DNA of 64,000 nt from a virus (IMGVR_UViG_3300035208_003026:1-64000), one strand, 5' to 3'; positions 8,864-37,806 are shown, numbered from the stretch's first letter. Notes: generated by a model not told the origin, from the letters alone. Numbers and translations are program-made.

Positions 8864-9387
8864 GACTAATAGATATCTTACGCCATTATGGATTTAAGAT
8901 TGAAAAGAATCCACAGAGACCAAACTGGTCTAGCAACTTAAGGTGTCCGTTACCATCCCATAAAGGTGCTAAAGAACGGACACCATCATTTGGTTACAAC
9001 TTTGTAACTGATCACTGCCATTGTATGGGCTGCGGCTTTACCGGTCGAGCAGTGGAATTCATTTCAGCTATGGAAGGTGTAAGTAGAACATCTGTGGCGG
9101 AAAAGATTCTCGCCCAGTATGGTGAAGATGTATCTTCTGATGATTTTCAAGATTATGAAGATGATATCTCGCCAATTCTTCTTGAATGTTCAAGATACAT
9201 TCAAGATTACGTGCGAAAATATAAAGACAATCCCAAAGCTTTAACTTACATTGATAAGTTGATTTGGTGGTTGGATTTCTACCTAGCGCAAAAAGCTCCG
9301 ACTAAAAGCATTACTGCAGAAGAGCTTCGACACAGGTTTAATAGAGTAAAGGAACTTTTAGATAATGAAGTGCTTAATTCTGGGTGA
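8743..9387 (+). CDS. stand-alone primase zinc-binding (CHC2-type) domain protein
   Basis: CPLPSH..ERTPSF...CHCMGCG..G.AVEFISAMEG; no TOPRIM domain. Confidence 0.8.
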   Translation: MRKVSNTARPPAGSDSQGQGSDDGGTSEPFAHIKAANRKVRLIDILRHYGFKIEKNPQRPNWSSNLRCPLPSHKGAKERTPSFGYNFVTDHCHCMGCGFTGRAVEFISAMEGVSRTSVAEKILAQYGEDVSSDDFQDYEDDISPILLECSRYIQDYVRKYKDNPKALTYIDKLIWWLDFYLAQKAPTKSITAEELRHRFNRVKELLDNEVLNSG

Positions 9388-9415
9388 TTTACATATTGGT
9401 AAAGGAATATATTGA
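9365..9415 (+). pseudogene. displaced 5' stub of sbcD
   Basis: MKCLILGDLHIGKGIY* vs SbcD MKVLILGDPHIGK (11/13 identical). Confidence 0.8.
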
Positions 9416-9424
9416 CATTATGGT

Positions 9425-10156
9425 ATGTGGTACATATACAAAATCACCAATACTGTTAATGGAAAAGTTTATATTGGCCAAACCGTAAATTATAAGAACC
9501 GTTGGTCACGGCATCGTTCAGATGCAAAGCATAAGCCAGATAGTAGAAATAAACATCTAACAAGCGCTATTATAAAGTATGGCATTGATAATTTTACTTT
9601 CGAAGTGATTACTAAAGCAGATACTTTAGAGATTGCTGATGATTTAGAAATTGATTATATTAAACAGTACAATGCTACAGACCCTGTGTTTGGATACAAC
9701 AAACTACCCGGAGGACAAGGTAGGCGACCGATGTCAGAAGAAATGAAAAGAAAACTTTCTGAATCATTAAAAGGGAGAGTGAGCCCGATGAAAGGAAAGC
9801 ATCATACTGATCAGGCCAAACTATTATTATCAATAGCAAACATTGGAAATAAGCATAGTCTTGGTGTTAAAGTTTCAGATGAGACAAAAAAGTTATTATC
9901 AATTCTTAATACTGGTAAGATTCAATCAAATGAAACTCGTGCAAAGAGATCACAATCTATGATTGGTAAAAATGCTGGCGAGAAAAATGGAATGTATGGG
10001 AAAAGAGGTGCTCGTGGCAAGCTTACCAAAGAACAAGCTGATAATATTCGATTGGAATATAAAGAATCAAATATTTCAATGTTAAAATTGGCTTATAAAT
10101 ATAACATAAGCAAAAGGGCTGTTTTTAACATTTTACATGAAAGATTTTATAGATGA
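9425..10156 (+). CDS. free-standing GIY-YIG homing endonuclease with NUMOD3 repeats
   Basis: YIYKITN..NGKVYIGQT, GYN, repeats of the SEEMKRKLSES..KG type, C-terminal HTH-like tail. Confidence 0.9.
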   Translation: MWYIYKITNTVNGKVYIGQTVNYKNRWSRHRSDAKHKPDSRNKHLTSAIIKYGIDNFTFEVITKADTLEIADDLEIDYIKQYNATDPVFGYNKLPGGQGRRPMSEEMKRKLSESLKGRVSPMKGKHHTDQAKLLLSIANIGNKHSLGVKVSDETKKLLSILNTGKIQSNETRAKRSQSMIGKNAGEKNGMYGKRGARGKLTKEQADNIRLEYKESNISMLKLAYKYNISKRAVFNILHERFYR

Positions 10157-11364
10157 AAGTGTTGATACTTGGCGATCCTCATATTGGTAAAAATTTGTCA
10201 GTTGGTAAACCAGCGGAACAAGGTAAGCTTAACTCTAGGATTCAAGATCAAATTGATCTGTTGAATTGGTCTTATGATCAATGTGTACAACAAGATGTTA
10301 AACATATTGTGATTACAGGAGATGTTTACCAAGATTTTAGGCCGCATCCTGCTGTTATTGGCATCTTTATGCGTTGGCTTAAGCTTTGCGAACGTGCCAA
10401 TATCGAAGTCCATATCGTAATGGGTAATCACGACATACTACGTTCGGGACAATATGTAGTATCAGCTCTAGATTTAGTATCTGAACTAGAGCTTCAATCA
10501 GCTAATGTATATAAGAATGTTACAAGAGTTGAGCTTGAACACTTTACTCTAGTATTTATTCCTTTCCGTGACAAGCGAATGTACGATGTCAAGACAAAGG
10601 AACAAGCTCTCTCAAAACTGGCTGAGGAAATAGCCGCCGTAACAAAACTGGATTCCGATAAGCCCAAGATTGCAATTGGCCATCTAGCATTGGAAGGATC
10701 TTTATCTGTCGGTGATGAGATTTCCGATCAGCTTAATGAATTGTATGTTCCACCGGAGATGTTTGAGTGGTTTGATTATGTTTGGATGGGGCACATTCAT
10801 CATCCTCAGGTTATCCAACACCACAAACCATATGCCGCTCATATCGGCAGTTTAGATCGGTCTGACTTCTCTAGAACAGAAGTTGAGCATGGTAAGATTG
10901 CAATCCTTTTAGATCCTGGTTCAAAGAACAACTTTGTAGAAATTGATTTACCAACAAGGTCTTTAAGACCTTTGAAGATAGATGTACCGCCAGGTAAGGA
11001 TTCTACTGAGTTTGTTATCAATGAACTATGTTTACTTGACAAGAAGGCAACAATCAAAGATGCGATTGTTAGACTCGAAATTCAGTTGAACGGACCAGAA
11101 CTTGATAATGTTGATAGGGAAAAGGTAGAATCATATCTCAAGAACAATCTAGAGGTACATCATATCTGCAATTTCTCCGAATCAAGAGCCATCTCCATGC
11201 TTCAAATTAATGCCGAGGATACTTTCGATAACACTATGCAGATAGGTGACACTATTAACAAGTGGGCTGAAACCAGAGATCATTTCGAAAACGAACAGGA
11301 ACGTGATGAATTCAAGGCTGCAGCACACGAGATTTACAAGGCGTATGAGGAGAAATACCTGTAA
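10153..11364 (+). CDS. sbcD: SbcD/Mre11-family (gp47-like) nuclease
   Basis: GDPH, TGDVY, GNHD, GHL, MGHIH metallophosphoesterase motifs. Confidence 0.9.
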   Translation: MKVLILGDPHIGKNLSVGKPAEQGKLNSRIQDQIDLLNWSYDQCVQQDVKHIVITGDVYQDFRPHPAVIGIFMRWLKLCERANIEVHIVMGNHDILRSGQYVVSALDLVSELELQSANVYKNVTRVELEHFTLVFIPFRDKRMYDVKTKEQALSKLAEEIAAVTKLDSDKPKIAIGHLALEGSLSVGDEISDQLNELYVPPEMFEWFDYVWMGHIHHPQVIQHHKPYAAHIGSLDRSDFSRTEVEHGKIAILLDPGSKNNFVEIDLPTRSLRPLKIDVPPGKDSTEFVINELCLLDKKATIKDAIVRLEIQLNGPELDNVDREKVESYLKNNLEVHHICNFSESRAISMLQINAEDTFDNTMQIGDTINKWAETRDHFENEQERDEFKAAAHEIYKAYEEKYL

Positions 11365-25411: not shown

Positions 25412-25474
25412 ATGAGATGTATGACATGTGGTGCTGATATCCCACCTCAATGGGTTCATGCATTAAAATGTTAA
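25412..25474 (+). pseudogene. displaced 5' stub of the 26517 gene
   Basis: MRCMTCGADIPPQWVHALKC* vs MRCMNCGVEIPPAWVKCLEL; AAGGA RBS retained. Confidence 0.8.
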
Positions 25475-25533
25475 ATTCAACCTGAATTGTTGTACTATTA
25501 TATTATAATCTATACATTTTGTAATATATTAGT

Positions 25534-26505
25534 ATGGATAAGATTTGCAAAGTTTGTTTGAATAATAAATCTGATGAGTGTTTTCGCAAGAACAGTGCAA
25601 CATGCAAAGAGTGTAATTGTAAAAAACAAGCTATTTATCGTAAAAATAACAAAAAAGTTATTAATGAGAAGAATAAGGCTTATTATTTAGCTAATAAAGA
25701 GAGTATTCTGCAAAAAGAAGCAGAATATAGAAAAAGAAACATAGATATTATTAGGAAAAAAGATAGAGAACGGACAAAACAAAGAAAAAGAATAAAGAAA
25801 GAAAAGTTTTGTACAATTTGTAATAAAATAATTAGTTCGTATAAAAAATATTGTGATGTATGTCGTGAAATTGGTTACGAGAAAATAAATAAACAATATA
25901 TTGAGAGCAATAAAGATGCGATTAAGAAACGTAGAAAAGAATATTATGATAATAATAAAGAAAAAATTAAGTTAAAAATTAAATTATATATTGAACGTAA
26001 TAAAGATCTTATTTCTAAAAAAGCTCATAGTAATTATGTAAAGCATAAAGATAAATATGCAAAGTATCATAAAGAATATCGTGCTAAAAATAAAGAAAAG
26101 ATAAAAGAAAATAGAAAAATATATGAAGATAAAAAGAAAAATGATTTGAATTTACGTATAAGACGCAGGGTTAGGAATGCGGTTTATTGTGCGTTACATA
26201 GAAATGGATTTGAGAAAGATGGGTCGATACTTTCAAAATTACCATACACCATTAGTGATCTTAGATTTCATTTAGAATCATTATTTGAACCATGGATGAA
26301 TTGGGATAATTGGGGAGTTTATGATCCTGAAACGTGGGATGATAATAATCAGAATACTTGGACTTGGCAAATTGATCATATTATTCAACAGAGGGATTTG
26401 ATATATGATTCAATGGATCATCTAAACTTCAAATTATGTTGGGCTTTGGAAAATTTAAGGCCTTATAGTGCTAAGGCTAATATAAAAGAAAGTAAAAGAA
26501 AGTAA
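25534..26505 (+). CDS. free-standing HNH-type endonuclease with zinc fingers and Lys-rich repeats
   Basis: CKVC/CKEC/CTIC/CDVC; WQIDHI...NLRPYSAKAN; very AT-rich. Confidence 0.8.
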   Translation: MDKICKVCLNNKSDECFRKNSATCKECNCKKQAIYRKNNKKVINEKNKAYYLANKESILQKEAEYRKRNIDIIRKKDRERTKQRKRIKKEKFCTICNKIISSYKKYCDVCREIGYEKINKQYIESNKDAIKKRRKEYYDNNKEKIKLKIKLYIERNKDLISKKAHSNYVKHKDKYAKYHKEYRAKNKEKIKENRKIYEDKKKNDLNLRIRRRVRNAVYCALHRNGFEKDGSILSKLPYTISDLRFHLESLFEPWMNWDNWGVYDPETWDDNNQNTWTWQIDHIIQQRDLIYDSMDHLNFKLCWALENLRPYSAKANIKESKRK

Positions 26506-26516
26506 TAGGATTTAAT

Positions 26517-27269
26517 ATGAGATGTATGAATTGTGGTGTTGAAATACCACCAGCTTGGGTTAAGTGTCTTGAGTTAAACAGGTGCCCAGCATGCGATGGC
26601 GAGATTATGAATCAGGTATCTCAGGATCTTTTACAAGAATTAGCTGATGCAATGACTCGGATGCCAAATGATCCGCAGGGTGTTGCTGGCTGGCTATTAT
26701 CCAATTATCGATTTCAGAAAATGGGTTCTGCTGAACCTGTTGAGAAGTTCCATCGTAAGGGTGGTGAAAGAAGATCATCTGAAGATTTTGATGAATCTAA
26801 CATGAAGGTTGATCCTACGTACAATGAATTCATCAAGAGAAATAATGCAGCTGATCTAGTTGCTCGTGGTGAGAAGTTAGCTAAATTTAAGCATGGTGGT
26901 AATTCTCAGCTAGCAGAATATGCCTCTATGATTCAAGGGGTTGGCGATCCTTATGGTGATGATACTACAATAAATTTATCAGATGATGCTTCTCCAGATA
27001 TTGAAGACCAGAGAACTATGATGGCATTGGCTTCTGCTGGTCTGAATCCTTTCGCTGAAACTCCAGTTGGTGGAATTACTGATATGTCACAAGCTATCAA
27101 TCCAAGAGACGTTGAAAATCTTCTTACAAAAGGACAAACAGCTCCATTAAAAGAAGAGGTTCAGCTATCTCAGACAGCTGAAGGTCGAGCATATCTACAA
27201 AGAGATCAGTTTAAAAAACTAAAGGCGCAAGATGCAATCTCTGGCGGTGGTGGAGCATTTAGGAGATAA
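26517..27269 (+). CDS. zinc-ribbon hypothetical protein
   Basis: CMNC..CPAC at the N-terminus. Confidence 0.7.
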   Translation: MRCMNCGVEIPPAWVKCLELNRCPACDGEIMNQVSQDLLQELADAMTRMPNDPQGVAGWLLSNYRFQKMGSAEPVEKFHRKGGERRSSEDFDESNMKVDPTYNEFIKRNNAADLVARGEKLAKFKHGGNSQLAEYASMIQGVGDPYGDDTTINLSDDASPDIEDQRTMMALASAGLNPFAETPVGGITDMSQAINPRDVENLLTKGQTAPLKEEVQLSQTAEGRAYLQRDQFKKLKAQDAISGGGGAFRR

Positions 27270-31834: not shown

Positions 31835-32842
31835 ATGAATATTCAAGATGCATGCAATCTATTAGGGATAGAACCAGGAGCCTCGAAAGAAGAAGCTAAG
31901 AAGGCGTTTAGAAAGAAAGCTTCTGAGTATCATCCTGATAAAAACTCTTCAGAGGGTGCTGAGCAGAAGTTTAAAGATATCAATTCAGCTTATCAATTGA
32001 TTGAGAAACACGGAACAACCCCTCAACCATTTAATGTTTCTTCAGAGTTCTACGATCATAGTGAGCACTTCGCTGAAGAGCTTAGGCGCAGAATGAACTT
32101 TCATGTTAATTTTGGCAGACCATCACAGCTTAGAAGTGAACCTATAATTGTTCATGCAGATATTCCTTTTGATGTTTCTGTTCTTGGTGGTATTAAAGAA
32201 ATCATTTATGAGAGAACTATCAAGTGTGAAGCTTGTACTGGTGGTAAGGTATCATCCAACAAAGTGATGTGCTCTAAGTGCGGAGGACATGGGCATCGTA
32301 AGTATGGATCAGATGATCATGAACTTCCTTGTACTACTTGTGGGGCAACTGGATACATAACAAACAATTCTATATGTGATAAGTGTAAGGGTTCAGGAAC
32401 TCGGAAAAGTGTTGACACTTTGAAGGTAACGATTCCTCCTGGGATGGAATCTGGTGTTAGGCTGATTTTGAATGGTAAAGGAAATTATAATCCTTCATTT
32501 AACATTTATGACAATGTTATCGTTGTTATTTCAGTAATACCTGATCACGATATGCAACTTAGTGGCGGTGATGTTATATCAGTAATAGAGCTTAATTTGT
32601 TAGAAGCCCTACAAGGAACAAAGAGAAAGGTTCGTACGATTAAGGGCGAAAAAACATTAGTAATTAAACCAAAGACAAGACATAGAGATACGATTAGAGT
32701 TGCTGGTTTTGGTGTCCCACCAATGGGCGGTCATACGATAGTTATCAATGTATCATATCCTGATAGTGTTGATAACATAATTGAAGTATTGAAAGATAAA
32801 GAAAGTACAGAACCCGAAGAGATCTCTGGTGTTCAAAGTTAG
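31835..32842 (+). CDS. dnaJ: DnaJ chaperone (class A architecture)
   Basis: J domain YHPDKN; four CxxCxG repeats; C-terminal substrate domains. Confidence 0.92.
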   Translation: MNIQDACNLLGIEPGASKEEAKKAFRKKASEYHPDKNSSEGAEQKFKDINSAYQLIEKHGTTPQPFNVSSEFYDHSEHFAEELRRRMNFHVNFGRPSQLRSEPIIVHADIPFDVSVLGGIKEIIYERTIKCEACTGGKVSSNKVMCSKCGGHGHRKYGSDDHELPCTTCGATGYITNNSICDKCKGSGTRKSVDTLKVTIPPGMESGVRLILNGKGNYNPSFNIYDNVIVVISVIPDHDMQLSGGDVISVIELNLLEALQGTKRKVRTIKGEKTLVIKPKTRHRDTIRVAGFGVPPMGGHTIVINVSYPDSVDNIIEVLKDKESTEPEEISGVQS

Positions 32843-32850
32843 GAGTAAGA

Positions 32851-33207
32851 GTGGATTTTAGATCATTTTGTGACAACAAAGGTTGTGGAAAAGAAATGCG
32901 GCCTGTTGTTGATAAGGATACTTTAACAGCTTATTGTACAGAGTGCGGTAAGCCTGTTGGTAATATTTCAGTTTTCATGCGTCGTCAGATGATTTCTCAT
33001 GGTCAAGTTCGGCGAAATGAAAAGAAGAAGTTGGCATGGGCTGTTAAATGTCCTTCATGTACGAAGGAGGGTCCACCTGAACTGGATAAAAAGGGCGAGA
33101 ACCTTGTCTGCTCCTTCTGTGGTAAAGAGATCGATAACCTTGCAAAACCGTTCGAACAAATGATCAAGGTTAATTTGAAAGCTCAAAGGAGAGCTGATGA
33201 GGGATGA
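32851..33207 (+). CDS. double zinc-ribbon protein
   Basis: CDNKGC..CTEC and CPSC..CSFC. Confidence 0.7.
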   Translation: MDFRSFCDNKGCGKEMRPVVDKDTLTAYCTECGKPVGNISVFMRRQMISHGQVRRNEKKKLAWAVKCPSCTKEGPPELDKKGENLVCSFCGKEIDNLAKPFEQMIKVNLKAQRRADEG

Positions 33208-34016
33208 CCTCTTTATCTGAATTTAAAAAGAAGCAACGTATACTTAAAAAGGTTCTTCGAGTCTGTCAACATCTATTAGCTGGATCTGAACAGGCTCGCG
33301 GAGCTAGACGTTACATTAACTCTAGGTTAGATCAACGAGATCAAATGATTTGGGAGTTTGGATACTTCCCATCTGATGATCGGATTTCAGATCTTACCGA
33401 TATGATTGGTAGAAAAGATCTTGAATTTTTAAACTTGTATTATCCAAAGTTTCTAGCTGGTGGTATCGCTCCACATGGACACTTCTCAGATCATAACTTG
33501 ATCATGCCATTTAGAGATGTGCATGGAAATATTATAGCATTCTTAGGCCGATGTCTTCTTACAGAGACAGAACGTCAAGAGAATTTGATACATAAATATA
33601 AGTATAGTACAGGTTGTAATAAAGACTTGTACATCTATGGATTGGATAAGGCCAAAGATTCAATAATTGAAAACGATTTCGTTATAGGTGTAGAGGGTCA
33701 GTTTGATTGCATTTCACTACATGCTCATGGTATTAGTAATGCGATTGCATTTGGTTGGGCTAATATGTCTAGGTATCAAATGTTTCAACTACACCGATAT
33801 ACAAATAACATAGTTCTGATGTTTGATAATGATGAAGCTGGACAGAAGGCAAAGAAAAGAGTGAAGGATAGATATAAAGATGTTGCAAACATCAAAGTAG
33901 TATCTCCTCCAAAGGGGTTTAAGGATATTGATGAATTTTTCCGAGGCTCCAATGATACTGAATACGTCAAGTATGTTATAGATACAATAAAAGGTTTTGG
34001 AGAGAGGAATGGGTAG
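33204..34016 (+). CDS. dnaG: DnaG-type primase catalytic/TOPRIM domain lacking the zinc domain
   Basis: LIMPF..GNIIAFLGR, KYKYS, VEGQFD, MFDNDEAG, KDIDEF. Confidence 0.85.
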   Translation: MTSLSEFKKKQRILKKVLRVCQHLLAGSEQARGARRYINSRLDQRDQMIWEFGYFPSDDRISDLTDMIGRKDLEFLNLYYPKFLAGGIAPHGHFSDHNLIMPFRDVHGNIIAFLGRCLLTETERQENLIHKYKYSTGCNKDLYIYGLDKAKDSIIENDFVIGVEGQFDCISLHAHGISNAIAFGWANMSRYQMFQLHRYTNNIVLMFDNDEAGQKAKKRVKDRYKDVANIKVVSPPKGFKDIDEFFRGSNDTEYVKYVIDTIKGFGERNG

Positions 34017-34446
34017 AAAATCTAATCGATCTAACAATTATCAACATTTATTTGCAGAACAGTCATATTCGAATGAGATGATGGCTGAATTTTCCGAATC
34101 CCAAGGTTTGATTGAAAATTACAAACCCGAAGATAAGGAAAACTTAATAGATCTAAAGGAGTCTCTCCACAAAGAGTTCTGGAGGCTTGCCAAGGAAAAT
34201 CTAACAGAACGGCAGTTCCAGGTTATAGAACTTTTGGCTAAGGGGTTTACTCAAATTGAAATTGCTAAACAACTGAATGTCAATCAAAGTTCAATTACCA
34301 AAAGTGTTAATGGTAATTGTGATTATAGAAATGGGAAGCGCGTATACGGCGGTGCTAAGAAAAAATTGCGCAGATTGGCAGACCAAGACTCACAAATACA
34401 GGAAATCATAGCACAAATTGCCGAAATCCACGCTCAGTATGATTGA
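34009..34446 (+). CDS. sigma-70 region-4-like HTH transcription factor
   Basis: LTERQFQVIELLAKGFTQIEIAKQLNVNQSSIT; GAGG before ATG 34009. Confidence 0.75.
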   Translation: MGRKSNRSNNYQHLFAEQSYSNEMMAEFSESQGLIENYKPEDKENLIDLKESLHKEFWRLAKENLTERQFQVIELLAKGFTQIEIAKQLNVNQSSITKSVNGNCDYRNGKRVYGGAKKKLRRLADQDSQIQEIIAQIAEIHAQYD

Positions 34447-34511
34447 GACAATGGCAATAAACGGCAATAAAAGATGGTTTTTGGTCGAGAGTCGTAAGCC
34501 GTTGAAATATA

Positions 34512-35519
34512 TTGAGTATGAAACAGTGTATACTATGCAAGGAAGCGAAAGTACTTGATGCTTTTGCTAATAATAAAAGATCGAGTGATGGTTTACAGAA
34601 TTACTGTAAATCTTGTCAAAAGGTGTATCGGGATCGGTTAAAGCAAAAATCGAAACCAAAATTTGAACATCTTCAATGTGCTCGTTGTGGTATAACTAAA
34701 TCAGTAGATGATTTTCCAAAAGTTGGTAGTTCATCTACAGGATATGGATCTTGGTGTAAAGAATGTAAGAGTAAATATCAACAAAACTATGATTATCGAG
34801 AAGGTTACAAAAATCGCCGCAGTGAACGTGTTCAGTGGTTTCGTTCAATAAAATCTGGAATTCCTTGCACTGATTGTGGTCAGGTACTTGAGCCATCTTG
34901 TATGGATTATGACCATATTGGCGATGATAAAATTGAAAATGTAGCTCGTATGGTTGTTCATAATGCTACAAAAGAAAAGATACTTGAAGAGATGGAAAAA
35001 TGCGAGCTTGTTTGCTTATTATGTCATAACCGAAGAACACAAAGGCGTCTTGATGATCAAGGGGTAAATAAATATTCACCATATGTACAACGAAACATCG
35101 ACATCATTAATCAAGCTAAATCGGTTCCGTGTTCATATTGTGGGCAGCAATATGAACCATTTAACATGCAATTTGATCATATAGATCCTTTATTAAAGGA
35201 TGTTAATGTATGCCAGCTTAAGAGTGCTAAAGTCGATAGGTTAATGAATGAGATTTCAAAATGCCAGGTTCTTTGCGCTGTATGCCATCGTCGAAAAACT
35301 TTAATGGAACAAAAAGGTAATCTTTATCCAAAGTCTAGAAAGAAAGAAGAAGTAAAGAAAACGTTTCTTGATATAGATAATAAGAAGAAAGAATGTACAA
35401 AATGCCATGAGATTTTAGATTTTGATAAATTTAGGATTAGTAAAAAGACAAGTAGCGGGTTAGAGAGCTGGTGTAAGAATTGTTTGAATGAATATAAACG
35501 TGATAGACGGGCTAAATAG
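34512..35519 (+). CDS. free-standing endonuclease with two tandem HNH-like modules and three zinc fingers
   Basis: PCTDCG..DYDH..CELVCLLCHNRRT and PCSYCG..QFDH..CQVLCAVCHRRKT; CxxC..F..CKxC fingers. Confidence 0.8.
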   Translation: MSMKQCILCKEAKVLDAFANNKRSSDGLQNYCKSCQKVYRDRLKQKSKPKFEHLQCARCGITKSVDDFPKVGSSSTGYGSWCKECKSKYQQNYDYREGYKNRRSERVQWFRSIKSGIPCTDCGQVLEPSCMDYDHIGDDKIENVARMVVHNATKEKILEEMEKCELVCLLCHNRRTQRRLDDQGVNKYSPYVQRNIDIINQAKSVPCSYCGQQYEPFNMQFDHIDPLLKDVNVCQLKSAKVDRLMNEISKCQVLCAVCHRRKTLMEQKGNLYPKSRKKEEVKKTFLDIDNKKKECTKCHEILDFDKFRISKKTSSGLESWCKNCLNEYKRDRRAK

Positions 35520-35609
35520 AAATGGCAAAAAGGAAGCTTAGCAGATCAAGATAAATACATTCAATCAATAATCGCGCAGATAGCTGAGATACATGCTCAA
35601 TATGACTGA
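35518..35609 (+). pseudogene. displaced 3' stub of the sigma-like gene
   Basis: RNGK remnant, then LADQDKYIQSIIAQIAEIHAQYD* vs LADQDSQIQEIIAQIAEIHAQYD* (20/23 identical). Confidence 0.88.
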
Positions 35610-35635
35610 ACTCGGCTTTTGTGCGGCTAAACTAT

Positions 35636-35668
35636 AAGCCCACCTAGCCGTGGGCTTTTGTGTTTTTG
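35636..35668 (+). terminator. intrinsic terminator
   Basis: AAGCCCAC-CTAGCC-GTGGGCTT followed by a T-rich tract. Confidence 0.75.
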
Positions 35669-35721
35669 CTTCTATCACTACTTTTGTATGGTTTTAGCGC
35701 AGTTGCCTGTCCGCTATAAAC

Positions 35722-36267
35722 ATGGGAGAATCAATGAAGGATAAGTTCACAATTAACTTTGATCACCTAGCTGAGAGGGTTGTTCCACAGCAAACCTACC
35801 GTCTCAGAGATGTAGAACATCGTATTGAAAGGGTTGCTTATGATCTGGTTCGTTTTAGAGAAAACGAAGATACGGATCAGCTTTGGAAGATTGAGGATGG
35901 TAGTGATGGTCCCGTGATTGTAGCATTATATGGCGATGACGGGTCTTTACTAAAGACTGAATCTAGTACCAAGAAGGTATGGGAAGTAATTCCTGATAAA
36001 ACAGCGATGCACTTCTATTACAAGGGAGAGCCGTTGGTTTCTTTGTCTTCAGAGCAGCTTGGTATTCCTGAAAGCGAATTTAACATCGCTGGCCGTTGGA
36101 TTCCTCAAAAGCTTGCGTCTGATGAAAGATTCCAGGAATTGCTTTTGAATACAGTGAATAGAGCTGGCCGCGTACATATTGCTCAAAGATTCCCAGAACT
36201 TACCAAGGTAGCAGGCGTAACCGAGGAAGACTGGGAAGACGAGTCAAAGGATTCCGAAACTTTGTAA
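35722..36267 (+). CDS. hypothetical protein (head module)
   Basis: 181-aa ORF, first gene after the terminator. Confidence 0.65.
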   Translation: MGESMKDKFTINFDHLAERVVPQQTYRLRDVEHRIERVAYDLVRFRENEDTDQLWKIEDGSDGPVIVALYGDDGSLLKTESSTKKVWEVIPDKTAMHFYYKGEPLVSLSSEQLGIPESEFNIAGRWIPQKLASDERFQELLLNTVNRAGRVHIAQRFPELTKVAGVTEEDWEDESKDSETL

Positions 36268-36279
36268 GAGGAAAATACT

Positions 36280-37806
36280 ATGGATCTACACGAAATTACT
36301 TCATTGATCAATAAAGTAGCCGGAACAGTCGAGGCTAATGAAAAACTTGCACTTCCTATTTTGGCTGCAAAAGCTCGTAGAGAAGCGTCTACCCGTCCAA
36401 CAGATATTCCTCTTGTCAATGCTTCAAATGTTTTGACTAAGATGGCTTCGGATAGAACTTTCATTTCCCGTGACGAACTCCGTGGAATTATCGAACGCTT
36501 CTTTGCATCTCACTCCAAACTTTCTCAGGTATTTTCTGATGAACTTGGAAAGCATGCCGAGGTTAAGCCAAAGACTTTCGAACGTTATGCTGACGAAGGT
36601 CAATCACTGGATAGAGATTATGCAAAATTCTCTGATCCTATTTTGGCAAACGCTTTAGCTGGCGCAATGTCAGAAAACCCAACTGAACAGCTATACTCTC
36701 AAGCGGATGCACAGCGTGCTCAACGTGCGACTTATGCAAAACTTCTAGAAGCTGGAATTCAACCAAAAGACATCAAGACGTTCGCTGGCCGTAAGGATAT
36801 TATCATTGTTCAGGCAGTTCATGAAACACCTCTTGGTGTTTCTAATGTTCTAATTCCTGTTGAGCTAAAGGAAGGAAAGGCCATCCTACCATCCTTGTTC
36901 TTGTCCAGATTTGGATTTCAGGATATCGAGAAAAGTGCTTACAGCACTCATCTCAAGGCAATGGCTGGCAAGGCTTTCCGAGTTGATGGTTCTAAACTTC
37001 TCGATGTTTTGGAGCAAGTAAAGAATGGCTCAGCTGATATCGCTAATGAAGTTGAGATGGCTGCTATCAAGGTTGCCTCTGAGCAGGGAACTCGTCTACA
37101 TGATCCAAATGCTATTCTGTACACCCAGATTGATAAAGAGACTCCAGATGTACAGTTACCAAAGATGGCATCTAATGAGGAGAGCAGATTTGCTGAAACT
37201 CTTGGTAAACCAGATGGTGTAGCTCGTTTTGTCCACGGTGATCGTATTGTTGAGGCTGGTCGTTCTATGTTGGTTCGAAAGCTGGCCGAGATTGGGTACA
37301 AGAGTGTTCAGGTTAAGGTTGCGGATGTAGAGCAGGATAAGATCTTTTATGCTGTTGCAATTGGAACTGGAACTGGACTGAAGGTTCCAGTCGAAATTAA
37401 CGGAACAATGGTAATACCTCCAAAGGTTGTTTATGCTGACAGTTTTGTTACAGCATTTAGCAAGAAAGCTATTGATGAGGTTGTTGCTGCAGGTACTGGT
37501 GGTAATAAGCGTGCGCTAGCTACGGCATCACCATGCTATGACATGAAACCAACAGAACTTCTAGATGTTGTTAAGCAATCCATTGCTGAGGGTAATTACC
37601 TAAGAGCAGAGGATGCAATCAATGTTTTGGGTGAGGTTGATCCTCATACTCAGCGTATAGCAATTGCGCACATGATGATGAATATCTATGAGCCTGGCAA
37701 GGATCCTAAAGCGAATATTTCTGAGATGCAAAGAGTTGCATCAACTCCTGTTCGCGATACTCCACAATTCATGACTCACAAGATTTTCTTCCCTGAAGGA
37801 GCATAA
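36280..37806 (+). CDS. putative virion/head protein with an internal domain duplication
   Basis: two related segments (..LIPVELKEGKAILP / ..LKVPVEINGTMVIP); several K-x-A-S motifs. Confidence 0.6.
   Translation: MDLHEITSLINKVAGTVEANEKLALPILAAKARREASTRPTDIPLVNASNVLTKMASDRTFISRDELRGIIERFFASHSKLSQVFSDELGKHAEVKPKTFERYADEGQSLDRDYAKFSDPILANALAGAMSENPTEQLYSQADAQRAQRATYAKLLEAGIQPKDIKTFAGRKDIIIVQAVHETPLGVSNVLIPVELKEGKAILPSLFLSRFGFQDIEKSAYSTHLKAMAGKAFRVDGSKLLDVLEQVKNGSADIANEVEMAAIKVASEQGTRLHDPNAILYTQIDKETPDVQLPKMASNEESRFAETLGKPDGVARFVHGDRIVEAGRSMLVRKLAEIGYKSVQVKVADVEQDKIFYAVAIGTGTGLKVPVEINGTMVIPPKVVYADSFVTAFSKKAIDEVVAAGTGGNKRALATASPCYDMKPTELLDVVKQSIAEGNYLRAEDAINVLGEVDPHTQRIAIAHMMMNIYEPGKDPKANISEMQRVASTPVRDTPQFMTHKIFFPEGA

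Follow-up and report, generated by a model that had tools for sequence, protein, structure and literature searches.

Gene order at the locus

The stretch of DNA analysed here, referred to as the window, comprises the first 64 kb (64,000 nucleotides, nt) of a 209-kb virus record in IMG/VR (IMGVR_UViG_3300035208_003026), and since the record is of this length and yet has a CheckV completeness of 49 %, it is taken to belong to a jumbo phage. The locus of interest centres on a small regulator gene and a predicted homing endonuclease gene (HEG) of the double-HNH type behind it. On the plus strand it runs through a primase gene, the regulator gene, the HEG, a second copy of the regulator's last 23 codons (hereafter the stub), a terminator and the gene p181 (Table 1), and the end of the regulator gene is present twice, once within the gene (the in-gene tail) and once behind the HEG. 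Long open reading frames (ORFs) in the window read normally under genetic code 11.

Table 1. Features of the regulator locus in the window
Feature	Position	Strand	Basis and remarks
Toprim/DnaG-like primase gene	33204..34016	+	Pfam Toprim_2 E-value 2e-18; syntenic in all related loci
Regulator gene, 145 amino acids, LuxR-type / sigma-70 region-4-like helix-turn-helix; host gene of the HEG	34009..34446	+	GerE 28 bits; orthologs colinear
Regulator 3' segment, probably HEG-borne (left limit approximate)	34230..34446	+	Third-position divergence vs L038; codon usage
RVYGGAKKKLRR codons, candidate insertion/cleavage region	34339..34374	+	23/36 identical to L038; proportion of differing silent sites (pS) 0.92
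In-gene tail, functional, putatively cassette-borne: last 23 codons and stop	34375..34446	+	Protein 23/23 identical to L038
Spacer between regulator stop and HNH start, 71 nt	34447..34517	+	Tandem GGCAATAAA x2
Free-standing HEG (predicted), 333 amino acids	34518..35519	+	phrog_2255 E-value 2e-53; two tandem HNH/EndoVII-type domains
Junction, 20 nt; first 2 nt overlap HNH stop	35518..35537	+	Non-homologous to L038 junction
Stub, putative displaced native last 23 codons and stop, untranslated	35538..35609	+	No start codon; codon sharing; tree
Hairpin hp1 across the stub's stop codon	35572..35626	+	Predicted fold
Native intrinsic terminator, 8-base-pair GC-rich stem and T-run	35636..35667 (stem 35636-35657)	+	Conserved in HEG-free relatives
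Conserved intergenic/promoter region and p181 gene	35668..36267	+	p181 ATG 35734 or 35722, 181 amino acids; synteny; 92-95 % identity over ~50 nt to distant relatives

For comparison, the regulator protein was used to fetch 35 viral and 75 metagenomic loci (numbered with the prefix L), and the synteny of primase, regulator, p181 and p508 is found in these ~110 loci. One of them, L038, is a 3.8-kb metagenome contig which aligns end to end with window positions 32490-36287 at 87 % nt identity and has the same architecture, stub included, with two copies of the gene end there too. As this architecture is present in two independent assemblies, it is not an assembly artefact. Neither the locus DNA nor the regulator protein gave a match among GenBank phages, a scan of viral contigs with the HNH protein alone as query gave only one weak relative, and a degenerate pattern for the shared tail found nothing in a scan of viral contigs; the HNH homologs described below come from the loci obtained with the regulator.

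The two copies of the gene end

The in-gene tail encodes LADQDSQIQEIIAQIAEIHAQYD and the stub LADQDKYIQSIIAQIAEIHAQYD, each followed by a stop codon. The counts given in the first-pass annotation could be reproduced exactly, with 20 of the 23 residues identical and 16 of these 20 differing in codon, in every case by a single change at the third position. At the nt level the tails are identical at 50 of 72 positions (69 %), the longest identical run being 5 nt. The 22 differences fall 3/2/17 at codon positions 1/2/3, from which it follows that both tails were coding for nearly all of their divergence and that slow decay of a local duplicate is excluded. The similarity of the two copies is no coincidence, and L038 has the pair as well. 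No ATG, GTG or TTG occurs in the stub frame between the TAG of the HNH gene and the TGA of the stub, and the stub is therefore not an independently translated ORF. The in-gene tail is under purifying selection, as its protein is identical to that of L038 despite a synonymous divergence (dS) of 1.25. Both tails contain LADQD and HAQYD, which occur in none of the sampled orthologs.

The downstream copy sits where the gene end sits in HEG-free phages. From the stub through the sequence behind its stop and the terminator into the intergenic region, the DNA is colinear with the HEG-free loci L002 (84 % over 149 nt) and L041 (84.6 %), and the distance from the stub stop to p181 equals the distance from the gene stop to p181 in empty loci. 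Comparison of synonymous divergence with orthologs points the same way. Silent sites are saturated, the closer orthologs having identical codons at ~40-50 % (about 45 %) of shared residues across the regulator gene, and the stub is nearer to the native-type ends: for L002, L006/L048 and L003 its shared codons number 13/17, 13/17 and 11/17, as against 1/16, 6/18 and 6/17 for the in-gene tail. In terms of nt matches out of 69, stub versus in-gene tail, the values are 53 vs 40 for L002, 52 vs 41 for L041, 54 vs 48 for L003 and 55 vs 50 for L048. A 69-column maximum-likelihood tree places the stubs of the window and L038 within a clade of the HEG-free ends of L048, L003, L002 and L041 (ultrafast bootstrap/SH-like approximate likelihood ratio support of 89/95), and the in-gene copies outside it. 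Codon usage of the stub lies inside the genome's range (P 0.07, conditioned on the amino acids), whereas codons 107-145 of the regulator use rarer and more GC-ending codons (P 0.002 on the same basis; 2.4th percentile of equal-length segments). These observations support the earlier suggestion that the downstream copy is the displaced native end; those HEG-free orthologs which keep the native hairpin-terminator context match the stub and not the in-gene copy.

The hairpin in this context, hp1, has its 5' arm in the ...AQIAE codons and its 3' arm just past the TGA, ahead of the terminator. Besides the window and L038, four HEG-free relatives (L002, L003, L041 and L048) are predicted to form it, and in these four the inner stem is kept, with one-sided changes only. 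Its presence in native-type ends and in the stub may explain the nt-level conservation of GCGCAGATAGCTGAG. The terminator that had been proposed to follow the stub was found, and the native terminator now serves the putative regulator-HNH transcript.

The regulator and the endonuclease

The regulator reads from ATG 34009 (the frame being open from TTG 33997) to TGA 34444-34446, and at 145 residues it has the length of its orthologs. It had been described as a sigma-like protein. Pfam shows a C-terminal GerE/LuxR helix-turn-helix (HTH) alone, above the cut-off of 23.5 bits; Sigma70_r4_2 scores 19.9 bits, under its cut-off of 25.7, no Pfam match to sigma-70 region 2 was obtained, and PHROG sigma-factor families reach an E-value of 1e-6 at best. 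With region 2 absent and region 4 below the cut-off, assignment to the sigma-70 family was rejected, and to judge from these profile matches the label should read LuxR-type or region-4-like HTH protein.

The HNH gene runs from ATG 34518, with TTG 34512 as a possible start, to TAG 35517-35519. Its product comprises three CxxC...CxxC zinc ribbons and two tandem HNH/EndoVII-type domains, the motif C..CG...D(Y/F)DHI...C..(L/V)C..CH.R being present twice; the two HNH halves are paralogous (36 % identical, E-value 4e-15), and the description as a double-HNH gene is correct. Beyond the best PHROG match (Table 1), a second HNH family is matched at 7e-37, along with further HNH and endonuclease VII families, whereas Pfam's own HNH models did not match the protein and a sequence search of solved structures with it was empty. 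The ratio of nonsynonymous to synonymous divergence (dN/dS) against L038 is 0.09, and the gene is thus maintained by purifying selection in both phages. The 333-residue protein is probably an active endonuclease.

The HNH gene is a separate ORF beginning 71 nt past the regulator's TGA, and not an in-frame fusion. No terminator is predicted in the spacer. The tandem GGCAATAAA repeats (34453-34461 and 34463-34471) are perfect in L038, where the surrounding spacer is just 74 % identical, and at the same place L044 has GGAAAGAAA twice. CGGCAAT at 34462-34468 of the window and the ATTGCCG codons at 34417-34423 are complementary.

Divergence of the cassette, the junction and the right flank

Nei-Gojobori estimates between the window and L038 separate the locus into parts with different histories. 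Four backbone segments have a dS of 0.41, 0.50, 0.44 and 0.67, while the in-gene tail reaches the value given above, the HNH gene 1.30, and codons 111-122 a pS of 0.92. At a dS of ~1.3 vs 0.41-0.67, the joint history of tail and endonuclease gene goes back further than the split of the backbones. This co-divergence, together with codons atypical for the genome, bears out the proposal that the in-gene copy came with the double-HNH gene. Third-position differences in the regulator rise from ~11 % in codons 1-45 to ~45-50 % from about codon 75 on, and hence the carried segment may begin near 34230. The region of the regulator start (33930-34110) is 95-98 % identical between the two phages. The RVYGGAKKKLRR codons, 64 % identical to L038 as compared to 90.6 % upstream, form the most divergent segment of the genes. 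They are absent or scrambled in the stub, and the stubs of the window and L038 each lack different parts of the KIYGGAKKKLRR codons. The RVYGGAKKKLRR/KIYGGAKKKLRR codons are the strongest candidate for the place of insertion or cleavage, and the cut site would probably lie in or near codons 107-122.

The junctions between HEG and stub read AAATGGCAAAAAGGAAGC in the window and GTAGATTACGCCGT in L038. In the stub frame the L038 junction gives ...RLRR-LADQD, which makes its stub three or four codons longer and matches the TTA-CGC-CGT of L003 exactly. An RNGK remnant overlapping the HNH stop had been reported for the window, and the string is indeed present as AGAAATGGCAAA (R-N-G-K in a third frame, 35518-35529), overlapping the TAG by 2 nt and agreeing at 13/15 positions with the in-gene RNGKK codons of L038. 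Its status as a remnant is doubtful, since no RNGK-like string is present in the L038 junction. Alternatively, bases 35522-35545 can be read as (G)AKRKLSR with an 8-nt slippage deletion at the TTAGCAGA tandem.

To the right of the junction the two phages are nearly identical. The stubs agree at 70 of 72 positions (97 %), where neutral sites elsewhere differ by ~33 %, and the low-divergence tract extends from 35538 to ~35920 (10 of 385 positions differ, 2.6 %) before backbone-level divergence resumes. Within p181 the tract holds two third-position differences in 62 codons, the p181 N-terminus having 5 non-silent and 2 silent differences. This recently shared tract takes in silent sites of p181 as well and explains the 97 % identity of the stub, which is therefore not by itself functional evidence. 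The left edge of the tract is the first base of the stub, a simple reason being that homology ends there, the junctions being unrelated.

Occupancy and decay of the site in related loci

HNH homologs with 43-78 % identity lie directly behind the regulator in ~10 lineages and are absent from most of the ~110 loci. The occupied loci are the window, L038, L044, L005/L046, L056, L084, L087, L018/L092, L026/L101 and L112. In L018 and L026 the HNH start overlaps the regulator stop and there is no stub; ~95 nt of sequence that could not be assigned are left in L018, and none in L026. Self-search detected no stub in the first 35 loci or in the other HEG-bearing loci. In the gaps flanking the regulator on both sides, GIY-YIG genes were found in L020 and L032, a LAGLIDADG gene in L029, and genes for zinc-ribbon proteins in L031 (a weak HNH_4 match only, E-value 0.0097) and in L008 and L009 (without family match). 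Going by these predicted families, the regulator site is a multi-family HEG hotspot.

Several loci hold partial states. Of the HNH gene, L047 has kept no more than the last zinc ribbon. In L042 the HEG is absent, and a foreign-type tail is followed by 39 nt, a decayed stub (core 17/17, middle replaced), hairpin, terminator and promoter. L001 has a shorter stub remnant at +314, in the syntenic place. Matches to the stub core at up to 3 mismatches occur at 11 of 972,868 positions in all fetched DNA. Invasion, degeneration and loss can all be recognized in these stages, with the replaced end outlasting the endonuclease. L001 (4438-4863), L040 (2034-2329) and L047 (2935-3506) have in common an insert of ~330 nt between regulator and p181, with an open frame of ~52 residues (...DIVIKTSPTTPFQWK...); in L001 the stub remnant comes after this insert.

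Elsewhere in the window two further nuclease genes adjoin duplicated gene ends. At 9365-10195 a short ORF, MKCLILGDLHIGKGIY followed by a stop (9365-9415), precedes a GIY-YIG-like gene (9425-10156), and an intact sbcD-like gene begins at 10153 with MKVLILGDPHIGK. The two copies are separated by 5 silent codon differences, after which 12 nt are identical. Similarly, at 25413-26577, a stub encoding MRCMTCGADIPPQWVHALKC and a stop (25413-25475) lies upstream of an HNH cassette, and the intact zinc-ribbon gene from 26517 starts with MRCMNCGVEIPPAWVKCLELN, its first 13 nt being identical to the stub.

Degree of recoding

The recoding had been attributed to a distant donor or to selection against self-cleavage or recombinational loss. 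From this genome's codon usage, identical codons would be expected at 10.2 of the 20 shared residues, but just 4 are found (P 0.003, or P 0.009 with the stub fixed). A null based on 116 ortholog pairs sharing at least 15 of 23 residues in the tail segment was judged fairer than genome usage; in it, 6 % of pairs have a codon identity of 20 % or less, L003 and L045 sharing 1 of 16. With silent sites saturated in the family and 6 % of ortholog pairs just as far apart, the extent of the recoding is unremarkable. Across the family, likewise, 11 HEG-bearing lineages do not differ from HEG-free lineages in their distance to the HEG-free codon consensus (0.422 vs 0.417). Ordinary lineage divergence is enough, and a diverged donor would be sufficient for the codon differences; of the two causes proposed, the distant donor suffices, whereas selection is unneeded and is unseen in other HEG-bearing lineages.

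It could still be argued that the cassette tail was selected to differ silently, so escaping self-cleavage and repeat-mediated deletion of the HEG. The deficit against genome usage, the single codon of 16 shared with the native-type end of L002, the 5-nt limit on identical runs and the hyper-divergent RVYGGAKKKLRR codons of the two HEG-bearing phages would all fit such selection, but the ortholog pairs and the consensus distances just described do not single out these tails or HEG-bearing lineages, the in-gene RVYGG...RR of L038 is native-like (30/36 to L002, by hand count), and a diverged donor accounts for everything. We regard adaptive recoding as rather unlikely. A 5-nt identical run is far too short for efficient homologous recombination, and since no longer run is shared by the repeats, the HEG is protected from repeat-mediated deletion.

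Weighing the proposed displacement of the native end

Certain points weigh against reading the stub as the displaced native end. A HEG-free sibling of the window's own lineage was not found among the fetched loci, and because the closest HEG-free regulators are only ~80-84 % identical in protein, the polarity rests on context, codon sharing and the 69-column tree. Nucleotide constraint from the hairpin, rather than descent, may partly hold the native-type clade together, and the tree of the regulator's 5' part was unresolved and therefore could show no discordance. Two loci without an intact HEG are nearer the in-gene copy than the stub (L001, 53 vs 45, and L042, 50 vs 44 nt of 69), and L044 likewise is not nearer the stub; the gene ends of these three are read as cassette-derived, those of L001 and L042 as post-HEG scars. 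Finally, the junctions of the window and L038 are wholly different, which fits one insertion with later rearrangement as well as it fits two insertions.

Were the polarity reversed, with the in-gene tail native and the stub brought in as the right flank of the HEG, the 97-99 % identity of stub and right flank between the window and L038 would look like a recently transferred tract, and the resemblance of L001 and L042 to the in-gene version would be accommodated. The HEG, however, is just 79 % identical in the same two phages, so that the right tract did not move with it; the stub stands in the exact hairpin-terminator-promoter context of HEG-free loci, and it is the in-gene copy that has the atypical codon usage. 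Such a reversal is very improbable. A shade less credible still is a local tandem duplication of the gene end, followed by insertion of the HEG between the copies and divergence in place: the LADQD and HAQYD motifs, common to the two tails and absent from the sampled orthologs, would be explained, but a non-coding copy would change at all codon positions and not in the pattern seen, only 3 residues changed at saturated silent divergence, and the dS of the in-gene tail tracks the HEG and not the backbone. Expression of the stub by read-through of the HNH TAG is hardly credible at all. In the window the stub is in the HNH frame (...RRAK-stop-KWQKGSLADQD...), with only the TAG between, but a 4-nt indel puts the L038 stub in another frame, a frame match has a one-in-three chance, and the window's ORFs are normal under the genetic code assumed; with the frame broken in L038, read-through was rejected and the match in the window ascribed to coincidence. 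A doubtful but less remote suggestion, which is compatible with displacement, is that the stub is kept by selection since the 5' arm of hp1 aids the terminator or expression of the next gene. The occurrence of hp1 in six phages beside a conserved terminator and the stub's conservation in L038 at a level well above neutral sites are in keeping with this, while recent recombination of the 385-nt tract, silent sites of p181 included, explains the conservation, no compensatory pairs appear in the hp1 alignment, its fold z-score is just -1.6, and the 5' arm is decayed in L042.

Proposed explanation

Displacement of the native end by an incoming cassette remains the explanation that we consider highly probable: a HEG cassette replaced the end of the regulator and pushed the native end downstream as a stub, and the codon differences reflect lineage divergence. 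The HEG would have been acquired from a related HEG-bearing phage, through break repair or recombination. Three parts would make up the cassette: the 3' end of the donor's regulator, comprising at minimum its final 39 codons and perhaps starting near 34230, then a short spacer, and finally the HEG. The cassette tail now closes the reading frame as the functional end of the regulator, and the resident tail lies 1.16 kb downstream as an untranslated 23-codon stub before the original hairpin, the terminator and the next gene's promoter. The sequences themselves show the anatomy of the locus, which of the copies is native, the joint divergence of tail and HEG, the varying presence of the HEG and the stages of its decay. 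The two tails would have evolved as functional alleles in separate lineages with saturated silent sites; with no shared run above 5 nt, the copies could not readily recombine to delete the HEG, and the HEG-linked tail would probably differ, as a second consequence, from the sequence of the native target.

A bolder generalization, which we put forward as unlikely, is that in these giant phages the mobile unit is more than a HEG alone, the HEG travelling with a diverged copy of the neighbouring gene's terminus. Such a cassette would be self-immunising and deletion-proof, and the window might hold three: one with HNH at the regulator 3' end, one with GIY-YIG at the 5' end of sbcD and one with HNH at the 5' end of the zinc-ribbon gene. 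If this were true, gene-end alleles would regularly be replaced through HEGs, selection would act on the silent divergence of the carried copy, and the replaced terminus would persist past loss of the HEG, as in L042 and L001.

The locus offers a natural record of a HEG remodelling a phage gene, in which the foreign and the native piece, the hybrid under selection and a scar outliving the endonuclease can be followed. It also calls for caution, as ends of conserved phage genes beside HEGs can have a separate history, which matters for phylogeny and recombination analysis. The stub-type and in-gene-type sequences may serve as a substrate pair for the specificity of the uncharacterised double-HNH family.

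Comparison with known systems

To our knowledge, gene-end replacement of this kind has so far been documented mainly in fungal mitochondria, and the present finding extends the mechanism to bacteriophages; a limited literature search found no phage case with a displaced duplicate gene end. In fungi, mobile ORFs (mORFs) replace the C-termini of atp6 in Allomyces macrogynus, of atp6, atp9, cox2 and nad3 in Glomus, of atp9 in Rhizopus and of cox2 in Mortierella (PMC3630166). The native C-terminus there lies downstream and resembles that of relatives, whereas the inserted one has 64-81 % DNA identity (Glomus) with a nearly identical protein, and the Glomus atp9 and cox2 hybrids likewise are not fused to an endonuclease ORF (PMC3630166). 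As in these cases, the duplicated gene end of the window flanks an endonuclease ORF, the gene is completed by the inserted copy, whose divergence is far greater in nt (69 % identity, against 64-81 % in Glomus) than in protein, and the displaced native copy resembles the ends of relatives, here of those keeping the native context. The host, however, is a jumbo phage instead of a mitochondrion, the enzyme is of double-HNH/zinc-ribbon type where theirs are GIY-YIG or LAGLIDADG, a 71-nt spacer sets the HEG apart as an ORF of its own, where Allomyces atp6 has an in-frame fusion, and a decay series in which the HEG is lost and a scar is left can be seen across relatives.

The free-standing HEGs of T4-like phages, SegF, SegG, SegB and MobE, carry out intronless homing with co-conversion of flanking markers (PMC2988022, PMC2790892, PMC2330249). 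In both settings an intergenic HEG adjoins a conserved gene, its presence varies among related phages and the flank is transferred with it, and target-sequence differences would be expected to protect the HEG-bearing genome; cleavage, which is predicted here, has been shown for T4. In the T4 cases, as far as we know, the flank is simply converted, and we know of no description of a displaced duplicate of a gene end. In ICP1 phages HEGs lie at the boundaries of genetic exchange, nuclease genes marking recombination boundaries (PMC10448857). Here too, sharp changes in divergence coincide with a nuclease gene, and the HEGs share repeated zinc-finger DNA-binding modules, although the ICP1 nuclease is T5orf172/GIY-YIG-like and duplication of a neighbouring gene end is not mentioned for it (PMC10448857). 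Considered alongside these systems, the regulator locus is a well-documented phage example of a known process and not a new mechanism.

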